Origin: Bdellovibrionales bacterium
Lineage (GTDB): Bacteria > Bdellovibrionota > Bdellovibrionia > Bdellovibrionales > UBA1609
Assembly: GCA_050249195.1 (NCBI GenBank)
Contig: JBFWQY010000020.1
Span: forward strand, 30,081 to 94,080
Direction: 5' to 3'
DNA length: 64,000 nucleotides
Every line of letters begins with the position of its first letter. Position 1 is the stretch's first letter. Below, one piece after another: positions 17,475 through 58,522 of this stretch. The position numbers and the translations under genes were made by a program. Below the pieces are notes generated by a model. That model saw only the letters and a program-made list of their open reading frames with translations. It did not search any database and was not told the DNA's origin.

Positions 17475-18069
17475 GACCAAGCGGCCTCGAGTGGTCTTGT
17501 ACTGCAGAGTCTCCACTCTAGACCAGTCAAACGAGGCTCAAAAACGAGAACTTCTGGCTTACTGCTCTAGCCGGGGTTGGGCGGTTACTGCCATTTACGA
17601 AGACCAAAAAAGTGGCACAACCACAAACCGCCCTGCCTTTCAAAAACTGATGAAAGACGCTCACGCGAAGACATTCGATCGGGTCGTAGTCTTCAAAATC
17701 GATCGCATGGCAAGGTCCCTTAGGGATTTAATAGTGACACTTCAGGAGTTGATTGATCTCGATGTAGAGTTTGTCTCCATTAGGGACCATATTGACCTGA
17801 CTACAAGTGCTGGACGTCTCATGTTCAACATACTGGGAGCGTTCGGTCAGTTCGAAGCAGAGTTAATCAGGGAGCGGACGGTCTCGGGACTCAGAAACGC
17901 CAAGGCAAAGGGTAAACGACTGGGCAGACCTCCAACCATCGACGCCAAAGCTGTAATCGCTCGACGGAAGAGAGGGGCAAAGATTCGCGATATTGCCGCC
18001 TACTACGGCGTCTCTGATTCAGCGATTAAGAACATAATAGCCCGAACAAGAAAAAAGGGAACCCGGTAG
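17461..18069 (+). CDS. serine recombinase (resolvase/invertase family)
   Basis: 202 aa. The catalytic motif is VVLYCRVSTLDQSNEAQ, followed by a resolvase core and the C-terminal HTH KIRDIAAYYGVSDSAIKNIIAR. Confidence 0.85.
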   Translation: MVTIKTKRPRVVLYCRVSTLDQSNEAQKRELLAYCSSRGWAVTAIYEDQKSGTTTNRPAFQKLMKDAHAKTFDRVVVFKIDRMARSLRDLIVTLQELIDLDVEFVSIRDHIDLTTSAGRLMFNILGAFGQFEAELIRERTVSGLRNAKAKGKRLGRPPTIDAKAVIARRKRGAKIRDIAAYYGVSDSAIKNIIARTRKKGTR

Positions 18070-38974: not shown

Positions 38975-41900
38975 TTAAAACTCAACCAGTTTCTTCTGGA
39001 TTGTTTCGCAACCTTCTTGGATTCTTCGCTTGTGATCGGGAGAGATGCACCACTTTTCTCCCAGGATACGTGTGGTGATGTGGCGTTGGTCCTCATTTCG
39101 TTCGATTTTGAGCCTGGAGACGAGTTCCGAGCGGAAATCCGAGATCACTTGCGCCATCGGGGTTGGACTCTCTCTCAGGTTCAGAACAAACGATCTTGAA
39201 TCTCTCACAATTCCCTTCTCATTGAGTTCGCCTTTGAATCTGGTGTTGAGTCCCTCTGCAAGGCCTTCGAAACAAGCCGCGATCGTGCTTGCCGCATCCG
39301 ATTTATAGGTTCTTGTCAGCGCGTGACGATGCCTTGCGAGGGTCACCGTATAGCCCTCCTGTTCCAGCTGGTTTTCGTTTTTAGTAGTAATCCTCTCCTC
39401 CGTCCGCCCGCGAACGACCTTCATGTGAGCGATCGCCTTTAAAATGGCGCCCTGGGGACTGTGGTCCGCCTCGACCTTCAGGTTGGTGTACTTTGCGTTG
39501 TGAGAGGAATTGGCCGTCCGATTCACCGCATAGGTGTTCACCGCTCCTTCGATGTGGGCCAATCCCGCCTCATGAATCTCCCAGGAGGAGCCGTCGTGTT
39601 TAAGACCCTTTTCGGCCATTGCGATGATCAGCTTATCAATCAGATCCCGCGCTCGCATCTCCTTTGAGCGCGCGTGAGCGGATGCAGTTTTCTTTCCGTC
39701 TTTTTTGGCGGGCACGTATTGTTCCAGTTTCTCGGCGATGATCTCTTCAGCCTTCTTCCGGTAATCGCCGACCTCAAATCCTTTCCGGACGTCTTCATGG
39801 AGTTTCTCGATCTGCGCGACAATCTTTAAAATCTTATCGGTATGCCTTAAGAATTCCACCCCTGATGCTTTGCCCATCTCTTCCAGTTTTTCCGCGACTT
39901 CTCCATTGATCAGATCGTCGAAATCGAGTTCCACCGCCTTGGTTCGGAGAATGGCGATAAGTTCTCCAATAGCCGGATTTTTGAAGACTTTGGCGGCGGC
40001 CTTTGTGGTCTTTCCGTCCTTGGATTTTCTAGCCGATTCTTTGGGCTTGCGCTGAATGGCTTTCTTTTCGATGGCAGCCCCCCTTTGCTTCAGATCCTCC
40101 AGGATCTTGAGGATTTCGGCCTTTCTTTCTTTATCGGAGCCATTCACCTGCACTTCCACCTTCTCCACCAGCTCGGTGAACCGGGTCGGTTCGCTACTGA
40201 TGATCAGAACCGCGTCTTTGTCGTTACCCATAAGTTCGAAGGAGTGTTTTTCCGAGCCGACGGTGAAGTCCTCCTTGTAAAGCAAGGAACCGACAAAGCC
40301 TTTGACCTTGGCGACACCTTCTTGAACTTTCTCGGCCACTTTGTAAGCCGCTTCGAGCACGGGCCCGCCCAGCTTGGCCACAAACTGAGCTAATTTTCCC
40401 ATCCCCTTATCCACAACCTTTTTCACCTTGAGCAGGATGGATTTGATTTTGCGCGGAAGTCCTCCTAATCCGATGAAGCCAGCGAGGAATGCGATGGCAA
40501 TGGGAATAAACTTGGCAAAAGTTCTTTCGATAAAGTTGGCGGCGGCGCCGACGGCACCGGCTGCGATCTCGATAATCGCCGCGAAAATGCCCTCGATAAT
40601 TTTTAAGGCGTTGTGAATCTGATCGATAAGCGCAAAGAGCACATCGACCACTGTTTTTATGGCCGAGAGAATGGCCGTCACCGGAAAGAGGAGGCCAAGG
40701 ACCTTTTCAACGGCAAGCGTGACGACTTTGACCACCAGATATTCGCTGACTTCGCTCACGATGGCGTCCACCACATCGGTCAGCATTTCAACCAGCTTTT
40801 CCTTGAGCTTCTCCCAAACACCCACGATCCCTTTATCGCGGTAGGCTTGGATGAGGTCGAAGTTCTCCTCCAACATCTGCATTTTTCTCTCAGCTCTGTC
40901 CTCGGCGCCGTCCTTGTCCTTTTCCTTCTTGGCGATTTCCGCCACCAAAATCTTGCGAAAATTCTCGTAGGAAACGCCGATCACGCCTATGGCAAAAAGC
41001 AGGATACTGCTCAAGCTGAGAGGCTTTTGCAATTGGTGGCCGTCTTCAGTCAGCCCGCCCAGCAGCCAGTCGATCACGCCACCGAGCAGATGCTTGAGAA
41101 TGTTCTGCAAAAACTGGGTGAAGCCGCGCTTAATGCCTTCAAAAACGTTCTTGATAAATTGGACCGGGCGCTGAATCAGTGCGGTCGCCACGACCTTTGC
41201 CTTATCGAGAAAAGCTCTCAGCCACTTGCCGGCCGGTGAAAGCAGAAACGCATCCAGGATCAGTTCGATCAGCTTGTAGCCGACATCCCCAAGGAATGTG
41301 AGAACCTTTCTAACTGGAACGTTCACAATCTCCCAGAAATCACTGATCGATTTCCCGACGCTTTGACTGAGGAAAGGAATCTCCAGCACACGCACCATCA
41401 GGTCTTCAACCATAGACCAGTTGATACCGAGCTCCTGAACACGGCCCGAGAACCACGAAAAGAATTTTTGAAAAATCCCAGACTGATCAAGAGCTTCAAA
41501 ATACTCGGCCCCTCCCGGAATGAAACTAAAGGCGAGTCGTATATATTCCTTCGGCTCAACCTTAACGGTCTCGCCGGTGAAGAAATCTTTGCCAACAAGG
41601 CCCATCAGCAACCGGTACGTGTCCTTTTTCCGGATAGGATCGATCACCAAGTCCATCGCCTTTTTCAAAGCGTAGTCGGCGATATCGGAGAACCAGCCCC
41701 GCTGAATCACGTCGGAGTTGTCGACTCGTTTATTCTGGCGAATATGTGCTTTCTCATGCTCGACGAGGTATTCCTGCTCGCCCGCCGATTTGTCCTGAAA
41801 CTCAGCGCTGAGATAGATATTGTTCTGCCAGGTGAAGGCGGTGGATTTCACCTTCTTGTTGAGGCGAAAAGAGGCCGGGTTACTGATAATTTTGACTTGG

Positions 41901-45457: not shown

Positions 45458-48362
45458 TGCTTTTCACTTTCACCAACACTTCAACCAGGTTGGGGTACGC
45501 TCCCCTCATATCTAGATAGGGAAGAGATTCATCGCCAAGATGGATTGCGTATAGCGTTTCACCCACGATGTCGCGCAAGACCCAAGCAATTTCACTTTTA
45601 TAGATGTTCCGGCCCACATGCCATCCCTTCCGGTCCTGCCCGCCTTGAACCGTGTCGAAGAATCGCCAGAGGCGCTCCTTGGCCTTCGCGAGCACGACGT
45701 CGCTGTCCTCACGAAACTCCGTGACTGTGATCTCAATCTTAAGGTCTCTCAACTCCGGATAGCAGGTCTTAATCCTGTTCGAAACAGAGCGGGAGATTAG
45801 ATATTCATCAATCTTGGTCAACAAAGAATCGTTCGTGTGCAGATCTTCAATCTTCTTTGGAACAACAATGATTTTTATCCTGTTGGTCTCGGTATCAAAA
45901 AAAGCCTGGCAGGTGTGAACCTCACTGAACGCTTCGATCACGATGTGCTCGAAATCGGAAAACGTCACTGGTCGATCAGAATGTTTGAACTTTCTCGGCG
46001 CCACCTGATAAAAGTCGTCCTCACTTACGGCCAACCGATAACCTGTCGGTCTCAGGAGATTCTGGCCTTCTTTGAGGCCGGGAATCTTTTTCGCGATCGC
46101 GTTGATCTCACCGGCACCAACTCCCGAAACACCGGGCGAAAGTTCCCTGAGTCCGATGATTGAGATATTTTTTGATCCCACCGGCGGCGACTTGCCTTTG
46201 ACGCCGTTACCGAACTGAATTTTACCTTCGGCGTGAAACAAGACGTAATGCCGATCGTTCGGTCCTGAGCTCAAGAAATTATCGACTCGTATCCATTCAA
46301 AGATCTTGCTGTCACGGCTCAAGCGCAGCCCAGACTCGCCACTATGGACAACCGGCTCATCAATCCAGACGCTCAGGCTCAGTACATCTTTCGCCACCAG
46401 ATCGATAGCTTGCCCAGGTCTGCCGGTACCACTGAAATAAAGAATATCCTGTTCTGTTCGAACTCCTTCTGCCTCAACCGTGTTGTTGTAAACACCGTTG
46501 ATCACCAGTTTGCGAATCTGCTCGACGGTCGGATCTCCGCCGTTGGGTCCGGGTGATAAACGCAGTTCCAAAATGAAGCTTTTCCTGTCGTCGTCAAAAT
46601 ACCATCCTTTCAAAGGCGGATGGATAATTCGCCCGCTTTTCGTCAGACCCAGAGTCCGGTCTTCGGAGCTGGTGATCTGCGTCCAATTATAGGCATTGCT
46701 TTTCCAGTACCAGTCCATTTTCAGATTCTGCACGAGATCTTTATTTTGTGGATCAACGAAGATGCACCATTCAACGGCTCTATCCTCGCAGACCTGATCG
46801 AATTCAAAGAAGAGACCAATGTGACTATGTTCAACTCTCAGAAGATTTCCGGGTTGACCAGCATCAAAGTCACCGACCGAAACGCTCTTTCCCCATTGCT
46901 GGTCGCCGACGGACTTCTCCATCACGATGTTCACAATTCTGACCCCGATCGCAATGAGTGGAAATCGCTTCAGGAGTTCGCCATAATCATATGGCGTTCT
47001 CTCGAGGCCTCTCTTTTCGAGAATGGCATTTAGATTGTCTATATTATCCTGAATGGGATTTTCCACGGTCGCTCGGAGCCAGCGTGCTTCGGTCCCTTGG
47101 ATCGTAGATAGGGGAATTCGGGGAATGGTAAACTCGAGATTCAAAAAAGGTGTCCCATCATCACGAGTGCCCGGCATGACTGAGGAGGTGTCGAACCCGG
47201 GAACCGCCGTCCAGAAAACACCGTCGAAGAACTCGAGTTTGGAAACCGACAGGTCACCCTCCAGGAGAAGGGCGACGATCTTGTCATCCACTTCAATGGC
47301 ATGGAAGTCCTTTGTCACCGGACTGAATATTTCATGAAAGATCTTAATGTCGATGGATATTCTCGCGCTGGATTCGGGCGTTGAGAGAGATTCCAATCCG
47401 CCAATATACAAGAAGTTACTTGTACCCGGGTTTAAATTAAAATGTTTGGAGTCGGCGCCGACGACAATTTTCTTTTCGCCAACAACAACCCCGGCTGGCG
47501 CCGAGCACTGGAAGAATGTGGCACTCCCAAAGTCCACATCCGTGATGACCTTCCCTTTTAAATTCAGCTTATTGACAATCTCAACCTGGAAATTCTCGCT
47601 CTCTGAAACTCGAATGGGGAGATAGACATAAGCCGAATTAGCCTCGTGTTCCGCGAGATCCTCTTCAATCCCCATCAGATTGAAAATGCCCTGTTTTCTC
47701 TCGCTCTCACCAGAACCGAACAGGCCCCCAAAGAGCACCGGCGAAACCTCCTCTCCGTCGATAAAGAACTTAAACAGGCCGGTAAACTGATCAAAGTTGC
47801 TACGCGCCCCCGATATTTTCATGTTCTTGAGCTGTAGGAACTGAAAACCGTCCTTTGGTATCTTCTCGTTGACGGTGAAAACCTGGCGGTAGGAAATATC
47901 GCTTCCGGATTCATCCTTTAGAGCGATTCGATCGGTGATTTGTCCATTGACGCCCGCGATCTTCCAGGTTCTTGAACGTGAATGGTCTTCGATCGTCACG
48001 CTCTTGATCGTGTTGTTGCGAGCCGTCAGGTCCTCGGTGGTTTCGAATGAAACATCAGGATTCTTTTCAGTGGTCAGCCTTGTACCTTTCGGCACCAGAA
48101 CTTCATCATAACCTTTGGCGAGCGTGAAATGAATCGGCGCCACCGCGCGCTCCGGAGGAAGAGACGATAGGCCGATGTTGTCACAGATGTAGCGAAAATA
48201 TTTTTCATCCAGAAGGTTACTTCTTGCGGCAAGCAAGCGAACAATCCGGTTAAGTGACATCAGCAAGGGATAAGACGGGTGTCCCTTCCGTAGTGGCAGG
48301 ACGGTCTCAATCTGGTGATTAATTTGCTCTTCGGTGCGGCGGTCAATGAAGAACCCGCTCAT
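45447..48362 (-). CDS. large baseplate wedge protein (Afp11 / gpJ-gp6 position)
   Basis: 971 aa with an ATGA overlap with gp25. The assignment is mainly positional. Confidence 0.6.
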   Translation of the reverse strand: MSGFFIDRRTEEQINHQIETVLPLRKGHPSYPLLMSLNRIVRLLAARSNLLDEKYFRYICDNIGLSSLPPERAVAPIHFTLAKGYDEVLVPKGTRLTTEKNPDVSFETTEDLTARNNTIKSVTIEDHSRSRTWKIAGVNGQITDRIALKDESGSDISYRQVFTVNEKIPKDGFQFLQLKNMKISGARSNFDQFTGLFKFFIDGEEVSPVLFGGLFGSGESERKQGIFNLMGIEEDLAEHEANSAYVYLPIRVSESENFQVEIVNKLNLKGKVITDVDFGSATFFQCSAPAGVVVGEKKIVVGADSKHFNLNPGTSNFLYIGGLESLSTPESSARISIDIKIFHEIFSPVTKDFHAIEVDDKIVALLLEGDLSVSKLEFFDGVFWTAVPGFDTSSVMPGTRDDGTPFLNLEFTIPRIPLSTIQGTEARWLRATVENPIQDNIDNLNAILEKRGLERTPYDYGELLKRFPLIAIGVRIVNIVMEKSVGDQQWGKSVSVGDFDAGQPGNLLRVEHSHIGLFFEFDQVCEDRAVEWCIFVDPQNKDLVQNLKMDWYWKSNAYNWTQITSSEDRTLGLTKSGRIIHPPLKGWYFDDDRKSFILELRLSPGPNGGDPTVEQIRKLVINGVYNNTVEAEGVRTEQDILYFSGTGRPGQAIDLVAKDVLSLSVWIDEPVVHSGESGLRLSRDSKIFEWIRVDNFLSSGPNDRHYVLFHAEGKIQFGNGVKGKSPPVGSKNISIIGLRELSPGVSGVGAGEINAIAKKIPGLKEGQNLLRPTGYRLAVSEDDFYQVAPRKFKHSDRPVTFSDFEHIVIEAFSEVHTCQAFFDTETNRIKIIVVPKKIEDLHTNDSLLTKIDEYLISRSVSNRIKTCYPELRDLKIEITVTEFREDSDVVLAKAKERLWRFFDTVQGGQDRKGWHVGRNIYKSEIAWVLRDIVGETLYAIHLGDESLPYLDMRGAYPNLVEVLVKVKSNGF

Positions 48363-48745
48363 GACCAGGCTCCCTCAGGATAAAAGGGAAAAACCAGGTT
48401 TGCGCTGCTGTTGGTTTCAATCAAAGTGTACTTGACCTCAATTTCGAATCTCGGATCCTCGGCGCCGTGTTTGGATCGCACCTCCACTTCGACATTCTTG
48501 ATCCGTGGCTCCCAGCGCCCCAGAGCTTTAACGATATTTTCTTTCATGACGCTGATCGTGTAGGCGTCGATCGAATTGAAAACCATATCATTGATGCCGC
48601 AGCCGAAATCGGGCCGCATGACCCTTTCTCCTCTGCGTGTCAGAAGAACGATCTTAATGGACTCTTTGATCGCCTTTTCATAGCTGACCTGTTCAAGATC
48701 GCGGGAAACGCCGACACCCAAAAAGTCCTTTTTCATTTCACCCAC
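48359..48745 (-). CDS. gp25/GPW-like baseplate wedge protein
   Basis: 128 aa. IKESIKIVLLTRRGERVMRPDFGCGINDMVF is the GPW/gp25 signature. Confidence 0.85.
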   Translation of the reverse strand: MGEMKKDFLGVGVSRDLEQVSYEKAIKESIKIVLLTRRGERVMRPDFGCGINDMVFNSIDAYTISVMKENIVKALGRWEPRIKNVEVEVRSKHGAEDPRFEIEVKYTLIETNSSANLVFPFYPEGAWS

Positions 48746-49100
48746 CTATAAACACCGTGCTGACCGCGATCACTGTTGATGTCGGTAAATCAGCCGGATC
48801 GTTGCAGGTCTTCACCTGGTCTCCGGACCTTGCCGCCGGTTTGCCGTTGATAAAGACGCTGGTGCTCCCCTGAACAACCGTGCCCTTGTTGCTGGCCGGC
48901 GAAGTTCCTGACATATGCGCGGTCGTGTTCTGCGCCTCACTGTCTTTGGTGGCCGCCGGAAAGCCCTGGATATTAACGTCTGAGCTTAGACCTCCACTAA
49001 TGAAGCCAACGAAGGGGAACGGAGCCGTGCTCCCATTCGGCAAAAGATGCGTATCTGTTCCGGTCACCTGATCATTTTGTTTGGCCGCAGGGTTACCCAT
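48738..49100 (-). CDS. PAAR-domain spike-tip protein
   Basis: 120 aa, containing GFPAATKDS and NGKPAARSGD PAAR-type motifs. Confidence 0.8.
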   Translation of the reverse strand: MGNPAAKQNDQVTGTDTHLLPNGSTAPFPFVGFISGGLSSDVNIQGFPAATKDSEAQNTTAHMSGTSPASNKGTVVQGSTSVFINGKPAARSGDQVKTCNDPADLPTSTVIAVSTVFIGG

Positions 49101-49110
49101 TTTTTCTTTC

Positions 49111-49719
49111 CTAATTCAAGTTGATCGCCGTTGCGTTGATCTTGACACTGGAACCATTGATTTCCATGCGGCTGGATCCGTTCTTGATCTCCGTCTTGCT
49201 TTTACTTTCAAACACAATCGTGTCCGCCTTCATCTCAATCTCGCCGTTTTCCGATTTGATGGTGATCTTCTTCTCGGAGATGATTTCAATGGCGCCATCC
49301 TTTATGTTCAATTTAATGGAATTCTTTCCCTCACCATCACTAATCAGGATGTACAGATCATCTTTGTTGTCGCTGAACTCAATCTTGTGGCTGGCGGTGG
49401 TTCTGATCACCTTCAGGTGGTTTTTGCCCTCTTGAACATCGGACGGGGGAGTGTCCTTGCCGTTCCATAAACTGCCGACAATGACGGGCTTCTGGAAGTT
49501 CCCCATTTGAAAGAAAACCAGCACCTCATCGCCGACCTCCGGAATAAACTGGATGCCGCGGTCTTTACCGGCAAAGGGCGCCGCGATACGCGCCCAGCCG
49601 CTCTCAATCTTCTCATCCAGCCATGGATACTTCACTTTCACTCGTCCAAGCTTGTCGGGGTCCTCGAGCGAGGTCACCAGAGCAATCACCGGTCCGGCTT
49701 GATTTCCTCTTTCGGTCAT
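49111..49719 (-). CDS. spike protein (gpV/VgrG-like OB-fold plus short beta-helix)
   Basis: 202 aa. LGRVKVKYPWLDEKIESGWARIAAPFAGKDRGIQFIPEVGDEVLVFFQMGNFQKPVIVGSLWNG is followed by repetitive beta-strand units (IEIISEKKITIKSENGEIEMKADTIVFES). Confidence 0.85.
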   Translation of the reverse strand: MTERGNQAGPVIALVTSLEDPDKLGRVKVKYPWLDEKIESGWARIAAPFAGKDRGIQFIPEVGDEVLVFFQMGNFQKPVIVGSLWNGKDTPPSDVQEGKNHLKVIRTTASHKIEFSDNKDDLYILISDGEGKNSIKLNIKDGAIEIISEKKITIKSENGEIEMKADTIVFESKSKTEIKNGSSRMEINGSSVKINATAINLN

Positions 49720-50750
49720 ATTCCAACCCTTAAAACGGACAGATCCGTTTCCAGATTATTCTGATAAAAGGTCTGCTTCACCTCGGAGATGAAGTATTTG
49801 CCGGCAAATTTGCCGAATCCCTTCAAATTGATATTGTCCGATATTCTCAGCTCCGGATTGCCCGAAATGGACAGCTTTCCTTTAACCGTATTCAAGGAGT
49901 TGCGAAAAAACCGGCCGCTGACAAATTCATCAGCCATCTGCTGATCGACCATCTCGGGATTGAAGAAATGGTTCTTGCGATCGCCGAAGCCACCGGAAAA
50001 CCGCTGGAAGGAGCTCTTCTCTTGTCCCATGGAGACCGGGCTTTCCGTTGCCGATTTTTTGGAACTGATGGATTCCTTCTTCATCTCATCCCAGCCGCCG
50101 TATTGATGATCCCCATACTCTTGACTGATCGCCATGTAAATTTCGCCGTCCCGGATGTCGCGCGGGAACTCAACATCGGCAACGGCCGTCGCCGAGAGAT
50201 CCGCTTTTTTGTAATGAAGCTCCTCATCCCGAACGTAAACGATAAAGCCCGTCAGCTCCATCCGACCAAGCAAAAATTGATAATCGGTAAGAGCGTGTTG
50301 GATGACGTTCTCATGCTTGCTTTTGGAGTCCTCCACCGAGCAGGAGATTCTGTTGGATCGAGCGATCTCCTCGACGATCTCCGAATCCTTTTTGTCGTTG
50401 TAAACGTTGGTCTTTTTTCCGAGCTTAAGACGATTCAGGTAATCGTGTCCTCGGATCACCACCTTGCCGCCATTTTTATCGAACTTCGGTTCCAGGGAAT
50501 AAATCTCGCCGATGATCAGCTGGCTTTGGTTCATCTGAATTTCGACTTTGTCACCCAGATTGAAGTGATCGAAGTTCAGATAATCCCAGCTCTTGTGTTG
50601 AACGGATTGGGCCATGAATTCAATGGAAAACATGCCCGGAACGCAGACTTCCTGATGGACGACAATTTCCGTGATCGTCTGCAAATCCGAGCTGGACAAC
50701 GGCTTGTTGTTCACCCGCACCATAGGCTTGAAAACCTGGACGTCGCTCAC
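49716..50750 (-). CDS. gpD-like (late control D) baseplate hub protein
   Basis: 344 aa. Position and N-terminal pattern (VRVNNKPLSSSDLQTITEIVVHQEVCVPGMFSIEF) match the gpD family. Confidence 0.7.
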   Translation of the reverse strand: MSDVQVFKPMVRVNNKPLSSSDLQTITEIVVHQEVCVPGMFSIEFMAQSVQHKSWDYLNFDHFNLGDKVEIQMNQSQLIIGEIYSLEPKFDKNGGKVVIRGHDYLNRLKLGKKTNVYNDKKDSEIVEEIARSNRISCSVEDSKSKHENVIQHALTDYQFLLGRMELTGFIVYVRDEELHYKKADLSATAVADVEFPRDIRDGEIYMAISQEYGDHQYGGWDEMKKESISSKKSATESPVSMGQEKSSFQRFSGGFGDRKNHFFNPEMVDQQMADEFVSGRFFRNSLNTVKGKLSISGNPELRISDNINLKGFGKFAGKYFISEVKQTFYQNNLETDLSVLRVGI

Positions 50751-51553
50751 GATTTCGGCTCCGTATCCGGGATAATGAGCTGTTTGCCGATGTGATCTCG
50801 GGGAAATGCCAATGGATCCGTGATCTCATTGACCCTGGCAATTTCCTTCCACTTAGAGGGATCTTTCATCTCGTTGGCGGCAATCAGATCCAGGCGCATG
50901 CCCTGGACGACCGTAAGAACTTTCCGGCAAGCCTCAAGGCCTAGCGCGTTCAATCCCTCATCATCGGTCATATAGGCTTTGAGCACCAAATTCACTTTTG
51001 CCCGTACAGGGATGCCGTCGGGCAAAAACATCGTGTACTTGATACTCAAATTTTCCAGGTGTCCGCGGTACTTGAAGTCGCCCCATTTAAAAATAAGCAC
51101 CGGAGGAGCTTTGGTCTGAGAATCATTGGGCTTATTCGATGCCGGTTGAAAAAGTGATTTGAGGTGTTTCACGCCGTAGATCATGCTACCGGCCTTCGGC
51201 AACAAGTTGGTCAGACCGAAGCCTCCCACTGTGCCTTGCCGATTTTCCCTGACGTCCACGGGACCGGCTGGAGTCGAATAGGAATCGAAAATCAGCTCCA
51301 AAGTCAGGTTGTCCCGGGTGTATCCCATAAATGCTGTTTTCGACTGATCGCTGCCCTCACCCCACTTGGTTGTATAACCTTCGACAAACTCGTTGGGATT
51401 AAACATGAACTCAAAAAACCCGTCTTTGGCGCCCGACTCGCCATCAACGAAACCGCTGAGACTGCGGTCGCTGATCTGCTCGCCAATCCCTTCGACGTAG
51501 ATACGCGCTTTGGTAAAGGATGTGAATCCCGAGGTGGCGGTGGTTAAGTCCAT
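50747..51553 (-). CDS. CIS tube-like / LysM domain baseplate hub protein
   Basis: 268 aa. The N-terminal half is tube-like (ARIYVEG…FEFMFNPNEF…LTLELIFDS). The C-terminus is LysM-like (RLDLIAANEM…WKEIARVNEITDPLAF..IGKQLIIP). Confidence 0.7.
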   Translation of the reverse strand: MDLTTATSGFTSFTKARIYVEGIGEQISDRSLSGFVDGESGAKDGFFEFMFNPNEFVEGYTTKWGEGSDQSKTAFMGYTRDNLTLELIFDSYSTPAGPVDVRENRQGTVGGFGLTNLLPKAGSMIYGVKHLKSLFQPASNKPNDSQTKAPPVLIFKWGDFKYRGHLENLSIKYTMFLPDGIPVRAKVNLVLKAYMTDDEGLNALGLEACRKVLTVVQGMRLDLIAANEMKDPSKWKEIARVNEITDPLAFPRDHIGKQLIIPDTEPKS

Positions 51554-52353
51554 AATCCCGCTCCCCGCATGGCCTCAATCCGTGACCTCTGCTGCAGACG
51601 TTTTAACACGTCCTTAGTGATCTCACCCGCATGTTGAGAAAGCTGATGACGGACCTGGTTGACGACGTTGACGGAGGTTTCCTGTCGGAACTCATTTCTT
51701 ATGTGAACGAGGGTCGAATCCATTTTTTGAATGAGAGTCTTCTCCAACGCGTAGAGGTCATTTTTATGACGATTTTCAATTTTGTAAGTTCTTTGATAAT
51801 GTTCATTTTTAACGCTGCTCGTTCTGTCCCTCGCTCCCGTGATCACACCATCAACGCCTGGAGAGACAACGGAAGCGTTCAATTGCAATTGTTTTTGGCT
51901 ATGCCCGCGGACAATGAGCAGTCGATCGTGAAATCTGTCAGCTCTGCTCGAAAGAAGAGACCGGCTGCTGAGGCTCAAAAGATTATGATACGTTCTGACC
52001 AGCCGGTACATGGACCTGTCATTTTGAATCCATCGTTCCTTATGCGGGTTCACAATTGAAAGTTTTCTGATGTGACGGATGCTCTGGACGGGCGATGAGC
52101 GTGTCACAGGATGAACTCGCGTCATATTTATGGCTGTGGACAGCTGCGGGCGGATGCAACGGTTGTGAGCAACTAAAATGGATTGGTAGACATTCAGTTT
52201 GTAAATCCGGTTCTGCACGACTTGAAGAATATTCCGCTGATTTCGAACCTCAATCGTTCGCTGGCGGAGGGCCGGTTGGGTCCGCGCCATCGGGGCGTGC
52301 CGCAAAGTCCGTTTCAAGTGGTAGGTCCTGAGTCGCAAACGTCCGCATCTCAT
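51544..52353 (-). CDS. highly basic protein in the tape-measure (Afp14) position
   Basis: 269 aa, rich in Arg/His/Lys/Asn/Gln. It is tightly packed between tube 2 (1-nt gap) and the LysM protein (10-nt overlap). The assignment is positional only. Confidence 0.4.
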   Translation of the reverse strand: MRCGRLRLRTYHLKRTLRHAPMARTQPALRQRTIEVRNQRNILQVVQNRIYKLNVYQSILVAHNRCIRPQLSTAINMTRVHPVTRSSPVQSIRHIRKLSIVNPHKERWIQNDRSMYRLVRTYHNLLSLSSRSLLSSRADRFHDRLLIVRGHSQKQLQLNASVVSPGVDGVITGARDRTSSVKNEHYQRTYKIENRHKNDLYALEKTLIQKMDSTLVHIRNEFRQETSVNVVNQVRHQLSQHAGEITKDVLKRLQQRSRIEAMRGAGLWT

Positions 52354-52354
52354 T

Positions 52355-52786
52355 CTACATCAGCCTCAAAATGCCATTATGGGTGAAAGTGATAGAGGCG
52401 ATGGCCATCTCACTTGCCGTGGCCTTCAGAATCGGCGCATCCCATTTGATAGGCACAGCTTCGAGCAGAGACCATGTCGCCTTAACTGAATTGCGCGCAT
52501 CCAACGCCGTAATGTGGATATTGCTGCGTAGGCCGTAGCCCCTAACCACGGCCTCGTGCCAAGCCAGCAGCTCGCGCGACCATGCCAGGCCCTGCTTTAA
52601 CGTCACGTCGCTATACTTGGTCGGACCGATCAGTGAGATCTCGGACTGGTTCAAGCCCCCGACTTTAATCTTTTCCACCGTCGTTTCAGCCGCAATAGCT
52701 GACACTTCCATAAAGCCGGCCACCGCGAGCCCCTCGATGGCCACTAGAAAGTTGTACGTCAAAAAGGGCTCGGTGCGCTCGATCAT
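52355..52786 (-). CDS. inner tube protein 2 (Afp5-like paralog)
   Basis: 143 aa. FLTYNFLVAIEGLAVAGFMEVSAIAAETTVEKIKVGG matches the tail-tube family. Confidence 0.8.
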   Translation of the reverse strand: MIERTEPFLTYNFLVAIEGLAVAGFMEVSAIAAETTVEKIKVGGLNQSEISLIGPTKYSDVTLKQGLAWSRELLAWHEAVVRGYGLRSNIHITALDARNSVKATWSLLEAVPIKWDAPILKATASEMAIASITFTHNGILRLM

Positions 52787-52950
52787 ACGTCGAAGATGTT
52801 CCTTTCTTCCTTAGCGCCCAACGACCGGTTGATGGCGCTGATTTCCTCGCACCATCGCAACCGGTCACGATGCTCCATCTGAAGGAGCCCGTTCATTCCC
52901 CAGTGAAAGTGATACGCAATGAAGGCGATTTCTTCATGCGCCTTCTTCAC
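52783..52950 (-). CDS. small conserved-looking protein (55 aa), translationally coupled
   Basis: The GTG at 52950 overlaps the upstream TGA (GTGA). The product is MKKAHEEIAFIAYHFHWGMNGLLQMEHRDRLRWCEEISAINRSL. Its stop overlaps the next ATG (ATGA). The track ORF extends to an upstream ATG at 53016. Confidence 0.5.
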   Translation of the reverse strand: MKKAHEEIAFIAYHFHWGMNGLLQMEHRDRLRWCEEISAINRSLGAKEERNIFDV

Positions 52951-53327
52951 TGGGTAAGTTGCGACTCCCCCGCGAAGGACACCTCCGTCTCGAACCGGTG
53001 CTGGCACTTCGGACATTCCGAGTGAAATTTAGCCGACGCGGATTCATTAATCCGATTGTAAAATTCCTGCAGAAAATAAAAATCTTTGGCATAAAGCCGT
53101 TCAATAAGCGCGGGGCTGATGTCCTTGATGTCCCCGAGACGCGTGATCACTCTCGAAAGCAAGATCACCGTCAAATAATCCTGATTCGCTTGCACCCTCG
53201 GATCGCGCAAGGGGAGAATCTCATCGGCAGCGGTCGCCAAACGCATAACGCCCTTACGGTGAAGTGTGCCGTCCTCGGACAGGAAACCCTTTGGCAGCTC
53301 AAACTCAAATTCCGTCCTGATCAACAT
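52947..53327 (-). CDS. tail-assembly-chaperone-like protein with a C-terminal CxxC
   Basis: 126 aa. GTLHRKGVMRLATAADEILPLRDPRV resembles the P2 gpE / Mu gp41-type chaperones. The C-terminus contains CPKCQHRFE. Confidence 0.55.
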   Translation of the reverse strand: MLIRTEFEFELPKGFLSEDGTLHRKGVMRLATAADEILPLRDPRVQANQDYLTVILLSRVITRLGDIKDISPALIERLYAKDFYFLQEFYNRINESASAKFHSECPKCQHRFETEVSFAGESQLTQ

Positions 53328-53344
53328 TTCGATTCTCCTCCCAA

Positions 53345-53779
53345 TTATTGAATGCGAGTGAAGCCTTCGTGAGCCAACTCAACGGTTTCCAGCAAGACCT
53401 CGCTGTTTTTGGCGTTGAAATCCGTGGCGTCGTATTTGACCGGCCAAGCTTCGAAAATGTTCCAGCGCGCCTTCTCCTGCCCGGTATCGTCGACCACCAA
53501 CAGGGAGATACTGCGGCGACTGTCGGGACTGTTCGTACCATGCTCTTCAATGATCTTGCGCCAATTGTAGAGCTCCATGTTGTCGGTCATTCCTCTTTTT
53601 AGTGTGATATTCCCGTACTTGGTGAGTCCGGCGATCTTTTTCAGCTTGGGAAGGTCCTTTCCCTCCCGATACTCCACCACGTCGCTGCTTGAATCCGGTG
53701 TGGTCGCCTCACTAAATGCCGCAACAACGATTTTGTCGATTTCGACACGAAAACGATAACCGAGATATGGATCTGCCAT
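53345..53779 (-). CDS. inner tube protein 1 (T4 gp19 / Afp1-like)
   Basis: 144 aa. MADPYLGYRFRVEIDKIVVAAFSEATTPDSSSDVVEYREG is the tail-tube signature. Confidence 0.85.
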   Translation of the reverse strand: MADPYLGYRFRVEIDKIVVAAFSEATTPDSSSDVVEYREGKDLPKLKKIAGLTKYGNITLKRGMTDNMELYNWRKIIEEHGTNSPDSRRSISLLVVDDTGQEKARWNIFEAWPVKYDATDFNAKNSEVLLETVELAHEGFTRIQ

Positions 53780-53791
53780 TCCTAAACTCCT

Positions 53792-54916
53792 TTATGACTG
53801 TGTACTTTGAACCAGTTTAATAATGATGAATTCCGCCGGTCGGCTGGGTGCCATGCCGATCTCAATATTCAACTTTCCCGCGTCTCTCTCCGAGGGCGGA
53901 TTGTTTTCCTCACTGATCTTCACGTAGAAAGCTTCGTTTTCTTTGTTCCCAACCAGCGCGCCACGCAGCCAAAGATTTCGCAGGAAAGCCGTAATGCTGC
54001 GGTGGACGGTCCCCCAGAGAGCTTTATTGTTGGGTTCGAAGACCACCCATTGAAGGCTTTCCGTGATGGACTGCTCAGCAAATATAAAGAGACGTCGCAC
54101 GCTAATATGGGCGAATTCACCGGCTTCCATAGTCCGTGCACCCCAAATTGTTGTTCCGTATCCATCCAACGTACGGATCAGGTTTAACTTAAAATTGTCG
54201 AGCGAAGTGTTGAAGGCAGCATCATGCTGATTCTGGCTGACCTTCGTCTGCACCCCGATTGCGGGAAGAACACCGTGCTGAGTTCCGGCGGCGACTTGAT
54301 GAACGCCAACGTCGTTATCCACCTTCCCATACTGAGCGGCGATCAATCCGCTCGGCGGGATAAACTCGGCACCGTTGAGTGTCACCCAAGGGAAATAGGC
54401 GGCAGCGTAAGAAGAGGCCGTCAGGCCCGCGAAATAGGTGAGGGCCGCGTTGTAGGTCATATCCGCCGGCGGATCGATCAAAATAAACAGGTCCTTCCGG
54501 GTATCCGCATAAGCTTTGATCTTGGCGTAAGCCGCGGCGTGCGCGGTGGTATCCTCGGTCAGTCCGGGAAAGGCGATCAGACTCAGAGACTTGTTGCGAT
54601 CCAAGGCCGTCGCCAGAGTCTCTGAGAACGATTCTTCGTCGGCACCATTGACATGAGCCAGGTAACAAAAGCTGCCGCCCGCCACAAAGTAACTGCCCAT
54701 CACCTTTTTCAGGCGCAATGAGGATTCGTCATTTGCGGTCACGTAACGATCCACGTCGCCGATCTTTGCGATCAGCTTCAGCTCTCCGTGAGCAATTTCG
54801 CCTGTGGTATCAACATCAACCCCCACAAAGGCGGTCAGACTCGTGCTGGCCATGGCAACGGGCCTGTCCATACTTCCGCCACTTTCAAAACGAATTCCTG
54901 GTGCGTAGTTTGGCAT
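53792..54916 (-). CDS. contractile sheath protein 2 (paralog)
   Basis: 374 aa. APGIRFESGGS…STSLTAFVG and the C-terminus GKLNIEIGMAPSRPAEFIIIKLV match the sheath family. Confidence 0.85.
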   Translation of the reverse strand: MPNYAPGIRFESGGSMDRPVAMASTSLTAFVGVDVDTTGEIAHGELKLIAKIGDVDRYVTANDESSLRLKKVMGSYFVAGGSFCYLAHVNGADEESFSETLATALDRNKSLSLIAFPGLTEDTTAHAAAYAKIKAYADTRKDLFILIDPPADMTYNAALTYFAGLTASSYAAAYFPWVTLNGAEFIPPSGLIAAQYGKVDNDVGVHQVAAGTQHGVLPAIGVQTKVSQNQHDAAFNTSLDNFKLNLIRTLDGYGTTIWGARTMEAGEFAHISVRRLFIFAEQSITESLQWVVFEPNNKALWGTVHRSITAFLRNLWLRGALVGNKENEAFYVKISEENNPPSERDAGKLNIEIGMAPSRPAEFIIIKLVQSTQS

Positions 54917-54919
54917 TTT

Positions 54920-56098
54920 TTACCCCTGCGATGTTTTTTGTGTGAATGTCAGAACAACGAATTCGGCGGGCTTCACTGGCGCGTACTTCAACGTGATGTG
55001 CAACTCTCCCAGCGCCATCGTTTCTGCGTTATTGGTTTTGTCAACGATCACCTGAAAGGCCTCCTCTTCCTTGGAGCCGAACAAGGCACCTTCCTGCCAA
55101 AGCCGGCGCATAAAGGCGGTTACCGAGCGATTCACCTGTCCCCACAGCTCCGGAGTGTTCGGTTTAAAGGTGACCCACATCAGTCCATCACGGAGGCTGT
55201 CTTTAAGAAAGGCTTCGAGGCGACACACGTTGACGTATCTTTCGCCGGAGGCGGCGCCGCTGGGATACCAGGTTCTCGCGCCCCAAATGCACGTCCCCAC
55301 CCCGACAACAGGACGGATGAAATTGACCTTGATACCTTCCTTGTTCGTGCTGCGTTCAACAAACTTGTCATGTTCGATTTCGGAAGCCGGGTTCGTGACG
55401 CCAACGACCGAGCGGCAGATGCCACCGGAAATGCCGGCAGGAGCTTTATGAACCCCGCGCTCGCCGTCCGTACGTGCATATACTCCGGCTACGACACATG
55501 AAGGAGGTATATCGACCGTCTGGGTGGCGTCCGTCGCATCAACGACCTTCACCCAAGGATAATAAACCGCAAGCATTTTATCGTAGAGACTGCCGACAGC
55601 TGAAAATGTCGCAAGATCAATCTCGTCATCCGTATGATCCGCGGCTGCAACGGCATCGATAATCGCGAAGGCATTGATCTTCGTGCAGACTTCCACCACA
55701 TTGGCTGCAAATGTAGCGTCCGCCGCTCCCTCGGGATAGCAGAGAATCGTGATTTGCTCGTTGGCCAGAATGAGGTCCTTGGCCTGAGCGAACGTCTTCT
55801 TCGCGCCATCGTTCAGGTTAAGAACATAACAAACGGTGCCGCCCTCCGCGAAAAAATGTTTAACAGCGTAGGGAAGGTAACACTCGGTATTATGGACGGT
55901 ACCATACAATTTGGCCTCGTCACCCCCTCCATACTCGCTAACAAACTCAGAGTAGTTGGTGATCTTTGTCACCTTTAAGCTCGCGCTGGCTTCTTTGACC
56001 AACCCGACAAACAGAACCGTTGATGTGCCGGCCCCCGCAATCGGATTGAGTCCGCTCGATTTCTCTTCAAAATAAACCCGGGGTGACAAAATCTCCAT
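54920..56098 (-). CDS. contractile sheath protein 1
   Basis: 392 aa. The N-terminus SPRVYFEEKSSGLNPIAGAGTSTVLFVG and the C-terminus GELHITLKYAPVKPAEFVVLTF match the sheath family. Confidence 0.85.
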   Translation of the reverse strand: MEILSPRVYFEEKSSGLNPIAGAGTSTVLFVGLVKEASASLKVTKITNYSEFVSEYGGGDEAKLYGTVHNTECYLPYAVKHFFAEGGTVCYVLNLNDGAKKTFAQAKDLILANEQITILCYPEGAADATFAANVVEVCTKINAFAIIDAVAAADHTDDEIDLATFSAVGSLYDKMLAVYYPWVKVVDATDATQTVDIPPSCVVAGVYARTDGERGVHKAPAGISGGICRSVVGVTNPASEIEHDKFVERSTNKEGIKVNFIRPVVGVGTCIWGARTWYPSGAASGERYVNVCRLEAFLKDSLRDGLMWVTFKPNTPELWGQVNRSVTAFMRRLWQEGALFGSKEEEAFQVIVDKTNNAETMALGELHITLKYAPVKPAEFVVLTFTQKTSQG

Positions 56099-56135
56099 TC
56101 AGCGACTCCTTTTCATTTCTTCATTTTCATCATTA

Positions 56136-56714
56136 TCATTCGTTGATAATTCGGGTCTCGAGATCGATTTTCGGAGCGTCCGAAAGGGACGAGACCGGCT
56201 GAATCTCGGGTAATGTCTCCAACTGGTCTGCCTTTGGATACACGAAGACCGGTGCTAGCTGATAAAAAAGCGCCAGCGATTGGGCTTTCGCCGGAAACAT
56301 CGACCAGAACTTATTGAGCTCTTCCAGCCCCATTATCTTCGAAATAATCTTAACTACATTCTCGTGCGCTTCTGATTTTTGAACGATAAAGGGGTGCCGG
56401 AAGAAATAATCAGAGACATTTTCGAGAAAATTCATCTCCTGCTCCGAATCGTCAAATGTGGAATAAATAATAATGTTAGCCTCAATCACCAACAGAGGCG
56501 CTCGGTACCTGCCAGCGGAGACGCGTTCAGAAGGACTATTGACATAATGTGGATTGCGATTGAAATGGTAAATGTAAATGCCGAGTTTATCTTTACCGGC
56601 GTGCTGCGGCGACTTCACAAGGATATCGTTGGCATTGATCAGGTTGGTCAAAGCCGCACCCGTCGCTGTTTTAATCGAATCGCATATCTCATACAGAACC
56701 ATCGCTGTGCTCAA
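56136..56714 (-). CDS. DUF4255-type protein (Afp16/Pvc16-class tail terminator/cap)
   Basis: 192 aa with an ATGA overlap with the ATPase. Size and position match DUF4255. The assignment is partly positional. Confidence 0.6.
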   Translation of the reverse strand: MSTAMVLYEICDSIKTATGAALTNLINANDILVKSPQHAGKDKLGIYIYHFNRNPHYVNSPSERVSAGRYRAPLLVIEANIIIYSTFDDSEQEMNFLENVSDYFFRHPFIVQKSEAHENVVKIISKIMGLEELNKFWSMFPAKAQSLALFYQLAPVFVYPKADQLETLPEIQPVSSLSDAPKIDLETRIINE

Positions 56715-58522
56715 TGGGTCTCCTGATCCAGCGGATTACTGAAGAACAGACCCATTTTTTTGTGCTCCATTTCGGCGGCGGCCACGATATGCTCCATCTC
56801 AATCTGACCGCTATCCCCCTTGGCGCTGAGGGCGGCATTCAACGCGATTTTTCTGATACTGGCGCCGGAAATCTTCATCTTTTCGGCCAGTAGGTCAAAG
56901 TCAATTGTCCCTAAAGGGGCTCGCGCAGGAAACGACGACTGCCACATCCGTCGCCTTTCCCGCGCCGCCGGAAGAGAGAACCGTATGGAATAATCAAAAC
57001 GACGGAAAAAAGCCGGGTCGATGTTTCGCTCGAGGTTGGTCGCCAGCACCACAATACCGTCGTGCATCTCCATTCTCTGCAGGAGATAATTGATTTCAAT
57101 ATTGGAAAAACGGTCATTGGACGATTTCTGCTCGCTGCGCTGGGCGAACAGCGCCTCGGCCTCATCGAAAAGCACGAGGGTCGAGGGACCCACCAGGTCC
57201 TTAAAGACTTTCTCGATATTTTTTTCCGTTTCACCGACGTACTTGCTGATCAACGACGACAATTCAATTTTGTGCATCGTCCGTCCCAGCTCAAAGGCCA
57301 TAACGTTGGCGCTGAGGGTCTTGCCCGTACCGCTGGCGCCGAAGAAAAGAACGTTAACGCCCTCGTGAGTAGAGAAATCCTGCGAAAAGCCCCACTCACG
57401 CAAAACGAATCCTCGATCCCTGATACTCGCAATCACTCGCCTAAATTCCACCTCCTGCTCAGGCGCAAAGATCAGGTCTTTCTGCGAAAAAGTGCGGCTT
57501 TGCGCGGCCGGATTCTTCACCTCAACCGCAATAACATCGTTGATGGGATCACCTGAATGCCGTTTCTGTAGGCAAACCACAGGCCACCCGAACCGAACCG
57601 CCTCGCTCACAATTTTTTGAGCCATCGCCGAGTCGCGCATTTCGTCGCCAAGATCAAGAGCCAGGAGCGAGTGGGTCAAAATCGTTTCCTTAAAAAGTTC
57701 ACCCACGAGATCGAACGAACGCTCAACCAGTGGCACTTCGGCGAGCTTCAAAACAAGAGTGTTGAGGTCACAGTCGCGAGAGAGCTGGCGCGCGAAGTCC
57801 AGGCGGTGATCATCATTGCCTCCATAAACAAGGACGGCTTTTCGGCCCATTAGATCCGTAACGGAGTCCGGTCCGCTCACGAGAAGCTTGTCCGTGGAAT
57901 AGGGATGAAATGCGGTGCAGGCGCGGATAGGACCGCCGGCCGAATTGTCGCCGACGAGAAACCGAAAGACTCTCTCGTTGAGACGAAAAAAACGACCCAG
58001 AATTTTACCGACCGGCGGTCTCTCGAAAATATCAATCAGGTGGAATTGCAACAGGGGTGAGTCCGCCGTGAGCGGCCAATCGGTTTGCGGTTCGGAATTG
58101 ATGAGTTGCAGAGCGAACTGAATGGTCGGTAAGGTAAGATCATCCAGTTTATTATAAAAGCGAAAGATAAAGTCGGCGTTTTCATCCAGCTCAGCGAATA
58201 GTCCAAGAAGAAGGAATAAGGCCTCGGATTCTGAAAGGCTGAACCGACGGATTAGTATCTGAAAGCGACCTTCGTCTTCTTCTTTAGTCTCAGCCAGATC
58301 CCTGGCAACGGCCGCGATTCGCCTGTCAATCTCAGCCCGACCAAGACCGGCGATCAAATCACCGAAGATATGGAAAAACGGCTCCGTATCCCCATTACTT
58401 ATGATGAGTCGCTGAACTTTCAACCTAACATATTCCAAATGTCTCGCGTACAGGGGTACATCCTTGTCCAAAGTACAGCCGATTGAAAGCTGATCATAAA
58501 CAGAATCGTTTTTAAAAAACAA
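56711..58522 (-). CDS. eCIS AAA+ ATPase (Afp15/Pvc15 class)
   Basis: 603 aa. Walker A is GASGTGKT and Walker B is LVLFDEAEALF. The N-terminal region FSLSESEALFLLLGLFAELDENADFIFRFYNKLDDLTLPTIQFALQL is typical of eCIS ATPases. Confidence 0.85.
   Translation of the reverse strand: MFFKNDSVYDQLSIGCTLDKDVPLYARHLEYVRLKVQRLIISNGDTEPFFHIFGDLIAGLGRAEIDRRIAAVARDLAETKEEDEGRFQILIRRFSLSESEALFLLLGLFAELDENADFIFRFYNKLDDLTLPTIQFALQLINSEPQTDWPLTADSPLLQFHLIDIFERPPVGKILGRFFRLNERVFRFLVGDNSAGGPIRACTAFHPYSTDKLLVSGPDSVTDLMGRKAVLVYGGNDDHRLDFARQLSRDCDLNTLVLKLAEVPLVERSFDLVGELFKETILTHSLLALDLGDEMRDSAMAQKIVSEAVRFGWPVVCLQKRHSGDPINDVIAVEVKNPAAQSRTFSQKDLIFAPEQEVEFRRVIASIRDRGFVLREWGFSQDFSTHEGVNVLFFGASGTGKTLSANVMAFELGRTMHKIELSSLISKYVGETEKNIEKVFKDLVGPSTLVLFDEAEALFAQRSEQKSSNDRFSNIEINYLLQRMEMHDGIVVLATNLERNIDPAFFRRFDYSIRFSLPAARERRRMWQSSFPARAPLGTIDFDLLAEKMKISGASIRKIALNAALSAKGDSGQIEMEHIVAAAEMEHKKMGLFFSNPLDQETH

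Follow-up and report, generated by a model that had tools for sequence, protein, structure and literature searches.

What machine does a compact cluster of 20 genes in an uncultured Bdellovibrionales bacterium encode, where would it act, and how much of it is new? The cluster occupies positions 38975–58522 of a 64,000-nucleotide (nt) stretch of contig JBFWQY010000020.1 (assembly GCA_050249195.1), which we refer to as the window. An earlier note on this DNA had described it as a complete extracellular contractile injection system (CIS) with an unusual gene order. We find that it is very probably a complete, stand-alone, and apparently functional gene cluster for a phage-tail-like CIS of lineage II. 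Its architecture is not novel; it belongs to a known family and has some clade-specific parts. The gene content indicates a contractile particle, not the site at which that particle fires.

Gene Content and Conservation

The 20 consecutive open reading frames (ORFs) are all on the minus strand, reading from 58522 down to 38975, and are packed as the earlier note had reported. Neighboring ORFs overlap by up to 11 nt or are separated by up to 37 nt, approximately 91 of 19,548 nt are noncoding (about 99.5% coding), and AGGAG-like (Shine–Dalgarno-like) motifs stand 5′ of ORFs that come after a gap. Part of the reported order is corrected here to tube, chaperone, DUF6760, tube, and basic protein. 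Families were assigned by profile searches with Pfam, NCBIfam, and PHROG and by sequence searches of the PDB (E-values in parentheses throughout). Significant hidden Markov model or PDB matches cover all eight core CIS components that Chen et al. (PMC6899500) defined; to this core the cluster adds a PAAR protein, a tail assembly chaperone, a candidate for a basic ruler, and, as its last gene product, a DUF4157 protein that is a cargo candidate. These family matches confirm that all modules of an injection machine are encoded; the profile searches recovered every family that had been proposed, except for the 282-residue ORF and the Pfam LysM domain of the hub discussed below. Searching the two ends of the cluster for promoters and terminators yielded nothing informative. 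An identical sequence is present in a metagenome-assembled genome (MAG) at NCBI (contig JBINOK010000655.1, GCA_043955405.1; also a 97.9-kb contig with locus tags AB7G93_153xx), where annotation is piecemeal and names sheath family, DUF4157, GH108, or hypothetical proteins one at a time.

Only two close relatives of the cluster were found, one on a Joint Genome Institute metagenome contig and one on Logan contigs from several runs. Both contain all 20 genes in the same order, with the ATPase gene first and the DUF4157 gene last, at amino acid identities that are lowest for the large baseplate protein (32%) and highest for the tube (83%). The conservation of gene order at this level of divergence places the cluster far beyond chance. 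The flanks of the relatives are unrelated housekeeping genes (e.g., flagellins, PadR, and an MFS transporter). These comparisons also bear on whether the cluster is a decaying, nonfunctional relic. Mobile elements do lie near it and it is known from MAGs only; however, all 20 frames are intact, the overlapping start/stop coupling has been kept, and the same 20 genes are retained in relatives that have diverged this far. We judge a relic to be very unlikely.

Every structural protein of the cluster is a phage-tail homolog, an endolysin-like gene adjoins it, and an integrase, an invertase, and insertion sequence (IS) elements lie 10–33 kb away, as could be expected if the locus were a prophage tail module or an R-type tailocin instead of a CIS. 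However, the cluster also encodes an AAA+ ATPase, a Pvc16 cap, and a DUF4157 protein, and a tblastn search of 50,697 phage genomes with the chaperone gave no match. When the flanks and the larger ORFs elsewhere in the 64-kb window were scanned with Pfam and PHROG, no capsid, portal, terminase, or TssJLM/TssK gene was recovered, many of the ORFs there having no family match; precomputed Pfam annotation of the flanks of the relatives likewise contains none of these. A prophage tail or tailocin is, in our estimation, hardly credible. We therefore agree with the earlier note that the cluster is neither a prophage tail module nor a canonical type VI secretion system (T6SS), no head, portal, terminase, or T6SS membrane genes having been found in the ORFs scanned or beside the relatives. 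Prophage remnant, R-type tailocin, and canonical T6SS are all rejected given that no such genes were found and that CIS-type ATPase, cap, and DUF4157 genes are present.

Gene Order and Subtype

The order of ATPase, DUF4255, and sheath genes had been put forward as a novelty. It does differ from that of the subtype Ia prototypes Afp (Serratia) and PVC (Photorhabdus), where the genes for ATPase and cap come at the 3′ end, and it differs from these only. We surveyed 80 loci from named genomes, retrieved through the chaperone family, that include Paenibacillus, Brevibacillus, Cohnella, Methanosarcina, Methanoperedens, Acidobacteriota, Nitrospirota, Chloroflexota, and others. Of the 57 loci with an ATPase match and enough upstream DNA, a set that spans Bacillota, Acidobacteriota, Nitrospirota, and methanogens, 55 carry the ATPase gene 5′ of the sheath gene and in the same orientation; three additional loci examined gene by gene have the same arrangement. 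An ATPase-first order is therefore the ordinary architecture of lineage II, found in many phyla and in archaea, and the claim of novelty does not hold.

According to Chen et al. 2019 (PMC6899500), subtypes IIa and IIc have two copies of Afp11, subtypes IIa–c have a split Afp8, and PAAR is absent only in IIb. The window has a split Afp8, two Afp11 copies, and PAAR and, by this published trait key and not by a tree, appears to fit a IIa-like pattern of lineage II. The characterized example of clade IIa is the CIS of Halogeometricum borinquense (PMC11566945). Like IIa systems, the cluster has the eight core components, ATPase and cap genes 5′ of the sheath, the split Afp8, two Afp11 copies, PAAR, and a DUF4157 protein; unlike them, it has a pair of short sheath paralogs in place of a single long sheath and a short protein in the ruler slot. 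It also differs from the H. borinquense system in the lack of a gene for an anchor with six transmembrane (TM) segments, in four distal genes that are unique to its clade, and in its bacterial host.

The cluster shares lineage II membership with the subtype IId systems of Streptomyces coelicolor and Streptomyces venezuelae, which also supply its top solved-structure matches (sheath, 4.9e-50; Afp11, 6.1e-19). The Streptomyces systems have a single Afp11, an unsplit Afp8, and no fiber, with CisA in the fiber slot; the window has two copies of Afp11, a divided Afp8, and a soluble fiber-like protein in the slot of CisA. With Afp and PVC the cluster has in common the part list, the presumed firing mechanism, multiple short sheath paralogs, and terminal cargo genes, whereas these Ia systems have a one-gene Afp8, three sheath paralogs, and a recognizable tape measure, Afp14. 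The traits specific to the clade of the window are the two short sheath paralogs, the short 269-residue ruler candidate, and four distal proteins without homologs outside it.

Sheath, Tube, and Baseplate Proteins

The first gene encodes an AAA+ ATPase equivalent to Afp15/Cis15 (56711–58522, minus strand, as are all cluster genes below) with an N-terminal winged-helix domain (Pfam AAA, 2.4e-23; WHD, 8.8e-11) and both the GASGTGKT and LFDEAE motifs. It is Cdc48/p97-like by PDB sequence search, which confirms a generic Cdc48-like AAA fold only. The exact start codon, somewhere in the first ~60 codons, is uncertain; the public gene call in the NCBI MAG is likewise 603 residues. The next gene encodes a short form of the tube/sheath terminator cap (56136–56714) that has only the N-terminal domain of Afp16/Pvc16 (Pvc16_N, formerly DUF4255; 7.1e-13).

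Two sheath paralogs follow: A, of 392 residues and minimal Pvc2-like length (54920–56098; Phage_sheath_1C, 1.8e-10), and B, of 374 residues (53792–54916; Phage_sheath_1C, 9.3e-13). They are 32% identical to each other (BLASTP, 3e-58). In addition to the Streptomyces CIS sheath, sheath A matches the haloarchaeal structure 9ezm (5.8e-47) and Pvc2 over its full length (3.6e-35). A single sheath gene, with a median length of 577 residues, is present in 72 of 80 related loci, in contrast to the two short paralogs in this clade.

The main tube protein is Afp1/Cis1-like (53345–53779; Phage_T4_gp19, 1.4e-41), its best PDB matches are main tube proteins, and it is 78–83% identical to its counterparts in the two relatives. 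The second tube paralog is Afp5/Cis5-like (52355–52786; Phage_T4_gp19, 5.5e-30) and outscores the first against Alg5 and against 9gtp_a, the six-copy baseplate tube chain of Streptomyces. On these sequence matches, the second paralog is probably the tube initiator.

The baseplate hub or tube-initiator protein (50747–51553) is Afp7-like with a LysM-like tail (Pfam CIS_tube, 1.4e-22). The hub assignment of the earlier note is supported by the CIS_tube match; the LysM domain that it also named was not detected by the Pfam model in this protein, although some homologs do carry PF01476 and homologs are named LysM proteins. The hub has two clade-specific insertions, ~20 residues near the N-terminus and ~23 residues past a conserved DVR motif, which are found in none of the other aligned homologs. 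The spike is split into a gp27/gpD-like protein corresponding to the N-terminal part of Afp8 (49716–50750; NCBIfam VgrG_rel, 1.4e-27, with weak Phage_GPD and YQBQ matches) and a gp5/gpV-like protein with an oligonucleotide/oligosaccharide-binding fold corresponding to its C-terminal part (49111–49719; Phage_base_V, 2.6e-27). These are followed by the PAAR spike tip (Afp10; 48738–49100; PAAR_motif, 8.8e-12) and a gp25-like sheath initiator (Afp9; 48359–48745; GPW_gp25, 9.8e-25). Two baseplate J/gp6-like wedge proteins are encoded. Afp11a, of 971 residues (45447–48362), matches TIGR02243 (2.5e-32), the PHROG baseplate wedge family, and, in the PDB, Streptomyces Cis11 and Alg11 (2.6e-6); Afp11b, of 326 residues (44477–45457), matches TIGR02243 in its N-terminal part (2.1e-14) and PHROG 6.

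A Candidate Frameshift Pair and Ruler

The tail assembly chaperone (52947–53327; 126 residues) matches PHROG 508, "tail assembly chaperone" (3.6e-10), and has a C-terminal CPKC..H motif. It is accompanied by a DUF6760 reading frame (52783–52968; Pfam DUF6760, 1.2e-12) that is −1 relative to the chaperone frame. The chaperone with a coupled mini-ORF proposed in the earlier note is thus present in both parts, but the stand-alone DUF6760 ORF is one of 55 residues that begins at a GTG at 52950, not the 77-residue longest ORF, and the conserved DUF6760 motif GG..YP is 5′ of this GTG.

The chaperone and DUF6760 look like a conserved programmed −1 frameshift pair, as judged from comparison of the surveyed loci. 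DUF6760 directly follows the chaperone in 80 of 80 loci and, in all 72 loci with a recognized core motif, is in the −1 frame and overlaps the 3′ end of the chaperone gene. In the related loci, GG..YP starts at or before the chaperone stop codon, and the open −1 frame has no ATG, GTG, or TTG 5′ of this motif in 50 of 72; in one Methanosarcina locus the DUF6760 gene was not called. An in-frame slippery site is found in the overlap in 72/72 loci compared with 25/72 control windows, and it has the canonical form X_XXY_YYZ in 48/72. The types include G_GGG_GAA (26 loci), T_TTT_TTG (13 loci), which is the slippery site of phage P2, G_GGG_GGG (11), T_TTT_TTA (9), and G_GGG_GGA (7). Of 74 aligned loci, 48 have the G-run at the same position; among the remainder, T_TTT_TTR is the most frequent type.

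A hairpin lies 5–7 nt downstream of the slippery site in the 48 G-run loci, 36 of which make at least 10 of its 11 pairs; 77.6% of cells are paired in this structure, compared with 33–61% in slid controls. The codons that form it are biased toward pairing-compatible choices (Val GTA, 36 of 37; Pro CCC, 40 of 47, with 9.5 expected), and two loci have compensatory TAT/ATA changes. RNAalifold did not recover the hairpin from the mixed set of 74 sequences, and the hairpin was instead assessed by counting pairs within the G-run class and by the codon test. In the window, the putative slippery site G_GGG_GAG (52965–52971) is inside the 3′ end of the chaperone gene, and the hairpin (52885–52964) has a folding free energy of −27.9 kcal/mol (z-score of −3.77). 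The proposed fusion product would consist of chaperone residues 1–120 followed by 61 residues. Some features of the window count against a frameshift pair here: its slippery site is noncanonical, permitting re-pairing of the P-site codon only, and the hairpin begins 10 nt past this site, which is slightly far. The AlphaFold2 model of the chaperone is poor (predicted local distance difference test [pLDDT] of 60.7), and a Foldseek search of BFVD with it returned nothing significant.

The arrangement resembles lambda G/GT and P2 E/E+E′, in which a small gene between those for the tube and the ruler has a short −1 extension over its 3′ end, a slippery run, and a hairpin. Unlike the lambda and P2 pairs, the window has a second tube gene between the chaperone and ruler genes, and its fusion is predicted from sequence. 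The relationship to phage chaperones is detectable at the profile level only (PHROG 508), and, unlike them, the chaperone is unusually well conserved, with about 60% identity between bacteria and archaea. Afp and PVC have no DUF6760 partner, and the chaperone family of the window has not been described in them. A full-text literature search, of incomplete coverage, yielded no paper on DUF6760 or on frameshifting in these systems, and priority is uncertain.

Chaperone homologs number at least 8000 at about 60% identity in bacteria and archaea, with many named "phage tail assembly protein," and the family is present in at least 579 species-representative genomes. The chaperone is one of the best-conserved proteins encoded in the cluster: identity is 80–81% to the two relatives and ~58% over the 80 loci, which were selected via the chaperone itself and of which the only one from an actinomycete is truncated. 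From Bdellovibrionales to Methanosarcina, the chaperone roughly matches or even surpasses the tube protein in conservation, which is odd for an assembly chaperone and may point to a structural or multipartner role. A PDB sequence search with it found nothing.

The candidate ruler (tape measure) is a basic protein of 269 residues with an isoelectric point (pI) of 11.6 (51544–52353). It has no match in Pfam, NCBIfam, or PHROG profile searches. In 68 loci, the slot after the chaperone pair encodes proteins of 237–2056 residues, 97% of which have a pI above 9, and the protein of the window is near the short end of this range. A C-terminal motif of the ruler-slot proteins, ..V.R.I(E/D)(R/K)R....ER.R.RG, is also present on the 269-residue protein. 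According to papers on the Streptomyces and haloarchaeal CIS, these systems lack a tape measure. We put at even chances the hypothesis that lineage II CIS, from Bdellovibrionales to methanogens, keep a phage-style length module composed of the conserved chaperone, DUF6760 expressed via a −1 frameshift, and a basic ruler. On this hypothesis, the short ruler together with the duplicated sheath leads us to predict an unusually short particle in this clade.

Distal Proteins and Candidate Cargo

Three distal genes encode proteins that are restricted to the clade. The first, in the Afp12 slot, encodes 282 residues (43632–44480) and would be a peripheral baseplate protein by position only. It has no match in Pfam, NCBIfam, PHROG, or, searched alone and as a three-sequence profile, the PDB; it matches only three clusters among 1.84 billion representatives and is 36–56% identical to its counterparts in the two relatives. 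The description of this ORF in the earlier note as a gpI-like third baseplate protein finds no support in any family match. The second protein, in the Afp13 slot, is fiber-like (42763–43623; 286 residues), with a conserved domain of ~210 residues, a C-terminal heptad coiled coil, and weak coiled-coil-type matches only; its homolog in the more distant relative bears a 330-residue coiled-coil extension. For neither protein was homology detectable outside the clade, and divergent Afp12 and Afp13 are a trait of subtypes IIa and IIb (Chen et al. 2019, PMC6899500). The third is a fast-evolving protein of 202 residues (42151–42759) with no family match, which aligns only weakly with the proteins of 177 and 154 residues in the same slot of the relatives; it is possibly a fiber tip, fiber chaperone, or accessory protein. 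A permissive Pfam scan (E ≤ 5) of these three ORFs and of the versions in the relatives gave coiled-coil noise only.

The last gene encodes a protein of 1058 residues (38975–42151) with a DUF4157 (eCIS_core) domain (3.9e-8) and a HEKAH motif, which bears out the terminal DUF4157 protein of the earlier note and makes it a candidate cargo or toxin. DUF4157 proteins are lumen cargo in AlgoCIS (PMC8894135) and general markers of extracellular CIS toxins. The protein is composed of a predicted disordered N-terminus, the DUF4157 domain, a conserved and mostly helical module at residues ~170–600 that includes four to five hydrophobic, TM-like helices at residues 376–567, and a clade-specific C-terminal half. 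Only two full-length homologs exist among its matches; the others cover residues ~170–600 and have different toxin domains. The helical module is also found in DUF4157 proteins that end in Endonuclease_NS_2 nuclease or PT-TG toxin domains. It is probably the "long linker" of Geller et al. and may be a translocation or packing module. A PDB sequence search with the protein found nothing. As for the fiber-like and 202-residue proteins, no relatives of the C-terminal half were detected beyond the clade.

Site of Action

The word extracellular in the earlier description was an assumption. Characterized lineage II systems are cytoplasmic in Streptomyces (PMC10066040, PMC12237407), where the membrane adaptor CisA, encoded in the fiber slot, is needed, and membrane-bound in haloarchaea, where the clade IIa CIS is T6SS-like, depends on contact, and has a mode of action that correlates with a 6-TM protein (PMC11566945). 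We lean toward a particle that lies free in the cytoplasm until lysis releases it and that then binds its target via the coiled-coil fiber and fires. A different account of the same machine is possible, and we hold it with tentative credence: the particle would be cell-bound or intracellular and work inside its producer. The closest solved structures to the sheath and Afp11 come from the Streptomyces IId and haloarchaeal IIa systems, and in the published examples the mode of action is not predictable from core gene content. The protein of the last gene, with its four to five TM-like helices, could in principle be used as an anchor. However, its TM-like module is common to DUF4157 proteins with nuclease or PT-TG toxin domains and fits cargo better, the fiber slot is occupied by a soluble coiled-coil protein, and no evident homolog of a dedicated anchor is encoded, CisA being a bitopic protein in the fiber slot and Hbor_38620 a 6-TM protein encoded upstream. 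A crude hydropathy scan found no TM-like segment in the 19 noncargo proteins (tube 2 has a short hydrophobic stretch that belongs to a β-core), and near the cluster no multipass membrane protein was found except the histidine kinase described below.

Release by lysis directs attention to the gene that converges on the cluster (38431–38946, plus strand), 28 nt from the stop codon of the last ORF. It encodes an endolysin-like muramidase with GH108 and PG_binding_3 domains (Pfam, 1.9e-27 and 4.7e-11; PHROG endolysin, 3.2e-46) and no signal peptide. The earlier note, which stated that no holin gene is in or next to the cluster, overlooked this gene.

Several observations weigh against a released, target-binding particle, or leave parts of this reading less secure. 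The characterized lineage II systems are not extracellular. The GH108 gene is missing beside both relatives and is seen in one of 80 loci, and no holin candidate was found upstream of it. The fiber-like protein has no match to a fiber or receptor-binding family, such that the fiber call is by position and coiled-coil character only, and the four distal proteins have no homologs of known function. The AlphaFold2 model of the cargo candidate is poor (pLDDT of 58.5, predicted template modeling score of 0.28), and a Foldseek search of the PDB with it returned nothing below E = 2. The particle itself is predicted from its genes.

Gene Neighborhood

A hybrid histidine kinase–response regulator (58966–60762, plus strand; HisKA, HATPase_c, and Response_reg) is encoded divergently from the ATPase gene and is a possible regulator of the cluster; its gene is not conserved beside the relatives. 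On the other side of the cluster, next to the endolysin-like gene, positions 34207–38061 (plus strand) encode a protein of 1284 residues with an N-terminal signal-like segment and no Pfam or PHROG family. The intergenic region between these two genes (38062–38430) contains short tandem repeats, with three copies of GTGCTCAC and additional GAGAGATCGA-like units.

The region 5350–28433 is rich in mobile elements and of lower GC content (0.45–0.49). It encodes a tyrosine integrase (5350–6600), an IS66 transposase (11802–13412), a serine DNA invertase (17461–18069), an HTH-M78 regulator (24854–25960), and an IS110 transposase (27345–28433), and most of its other ORFs have no family. A lectin-like protein is also encoded in the rest of the window.

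Other genes of note lie outside the window. In the more distant relative (L003, 349–2531, minus strand), genes for a Tle1-like phospholipase and a PG_binding_1 protein are directly 5′ of the ATPase gene and are possible extra effector or lysis genes. Just past the right end of the window (L001, 1–1410), a 520-residue ankyrin-repeat protein is encoded ~6 kb 5′ of the ATPase gene and in the same orientation; among effectors directed at eukaryotes, ankyrin proteins are common.

Proposed Assembly and Implications

The analysis above demonstrates gene content, family membership, synteny, and the signals for a frameshift. By homology to the solved Afp, PVC, AlgoCIS, and Streptomyces particles, we infer the steps of assembly, the identity of the cargo, release, and target binding as follows. 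The baseplate would form from gp25, the two gp6/J-like wedge proteins, the 282-residue protein, the CIS_tube/LysM-like hub, and the split gp27/gp5 spike, with PAAR on top. The basic 269-residue protein would act as the ruler and would be handled by the chaperone together with the chaperone–DUF6760 fusion produced by a programmed −1 frameshift at G_GGG_GAG. The second tube paralog would start the tube and the first would polymerize on it; both short sheath paralogs would wrap the tube, and the Pvc16-like cap would terminate it. The Cdc48-like AAA+ ATPase may help in assembly or in cargo loading. The DUF4157 protein would be the loaded cargo, with its hydrophobic helical module and C-terminal half acting in the target. 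Target binding by the coiled-coil fiber, perhaps with the 202-residue protein, would precede firing.

Given that the family has already been catalogued in thousands of genomes, the direct value of this locus is modest. With it, the CIS family now includes a Bdellovibrionales MAG and a small clade whose specific traits may interest those who engineer compact injection particles or search for new cargo and targeting modules. The host order consists of predatory bacteria, and the injection system could serve in attack on prey or competitors. If true, the chaperone/DUF6760 frameshift and the basic ruler family would provide a testable account of how the particle length of lineage II systems is set.

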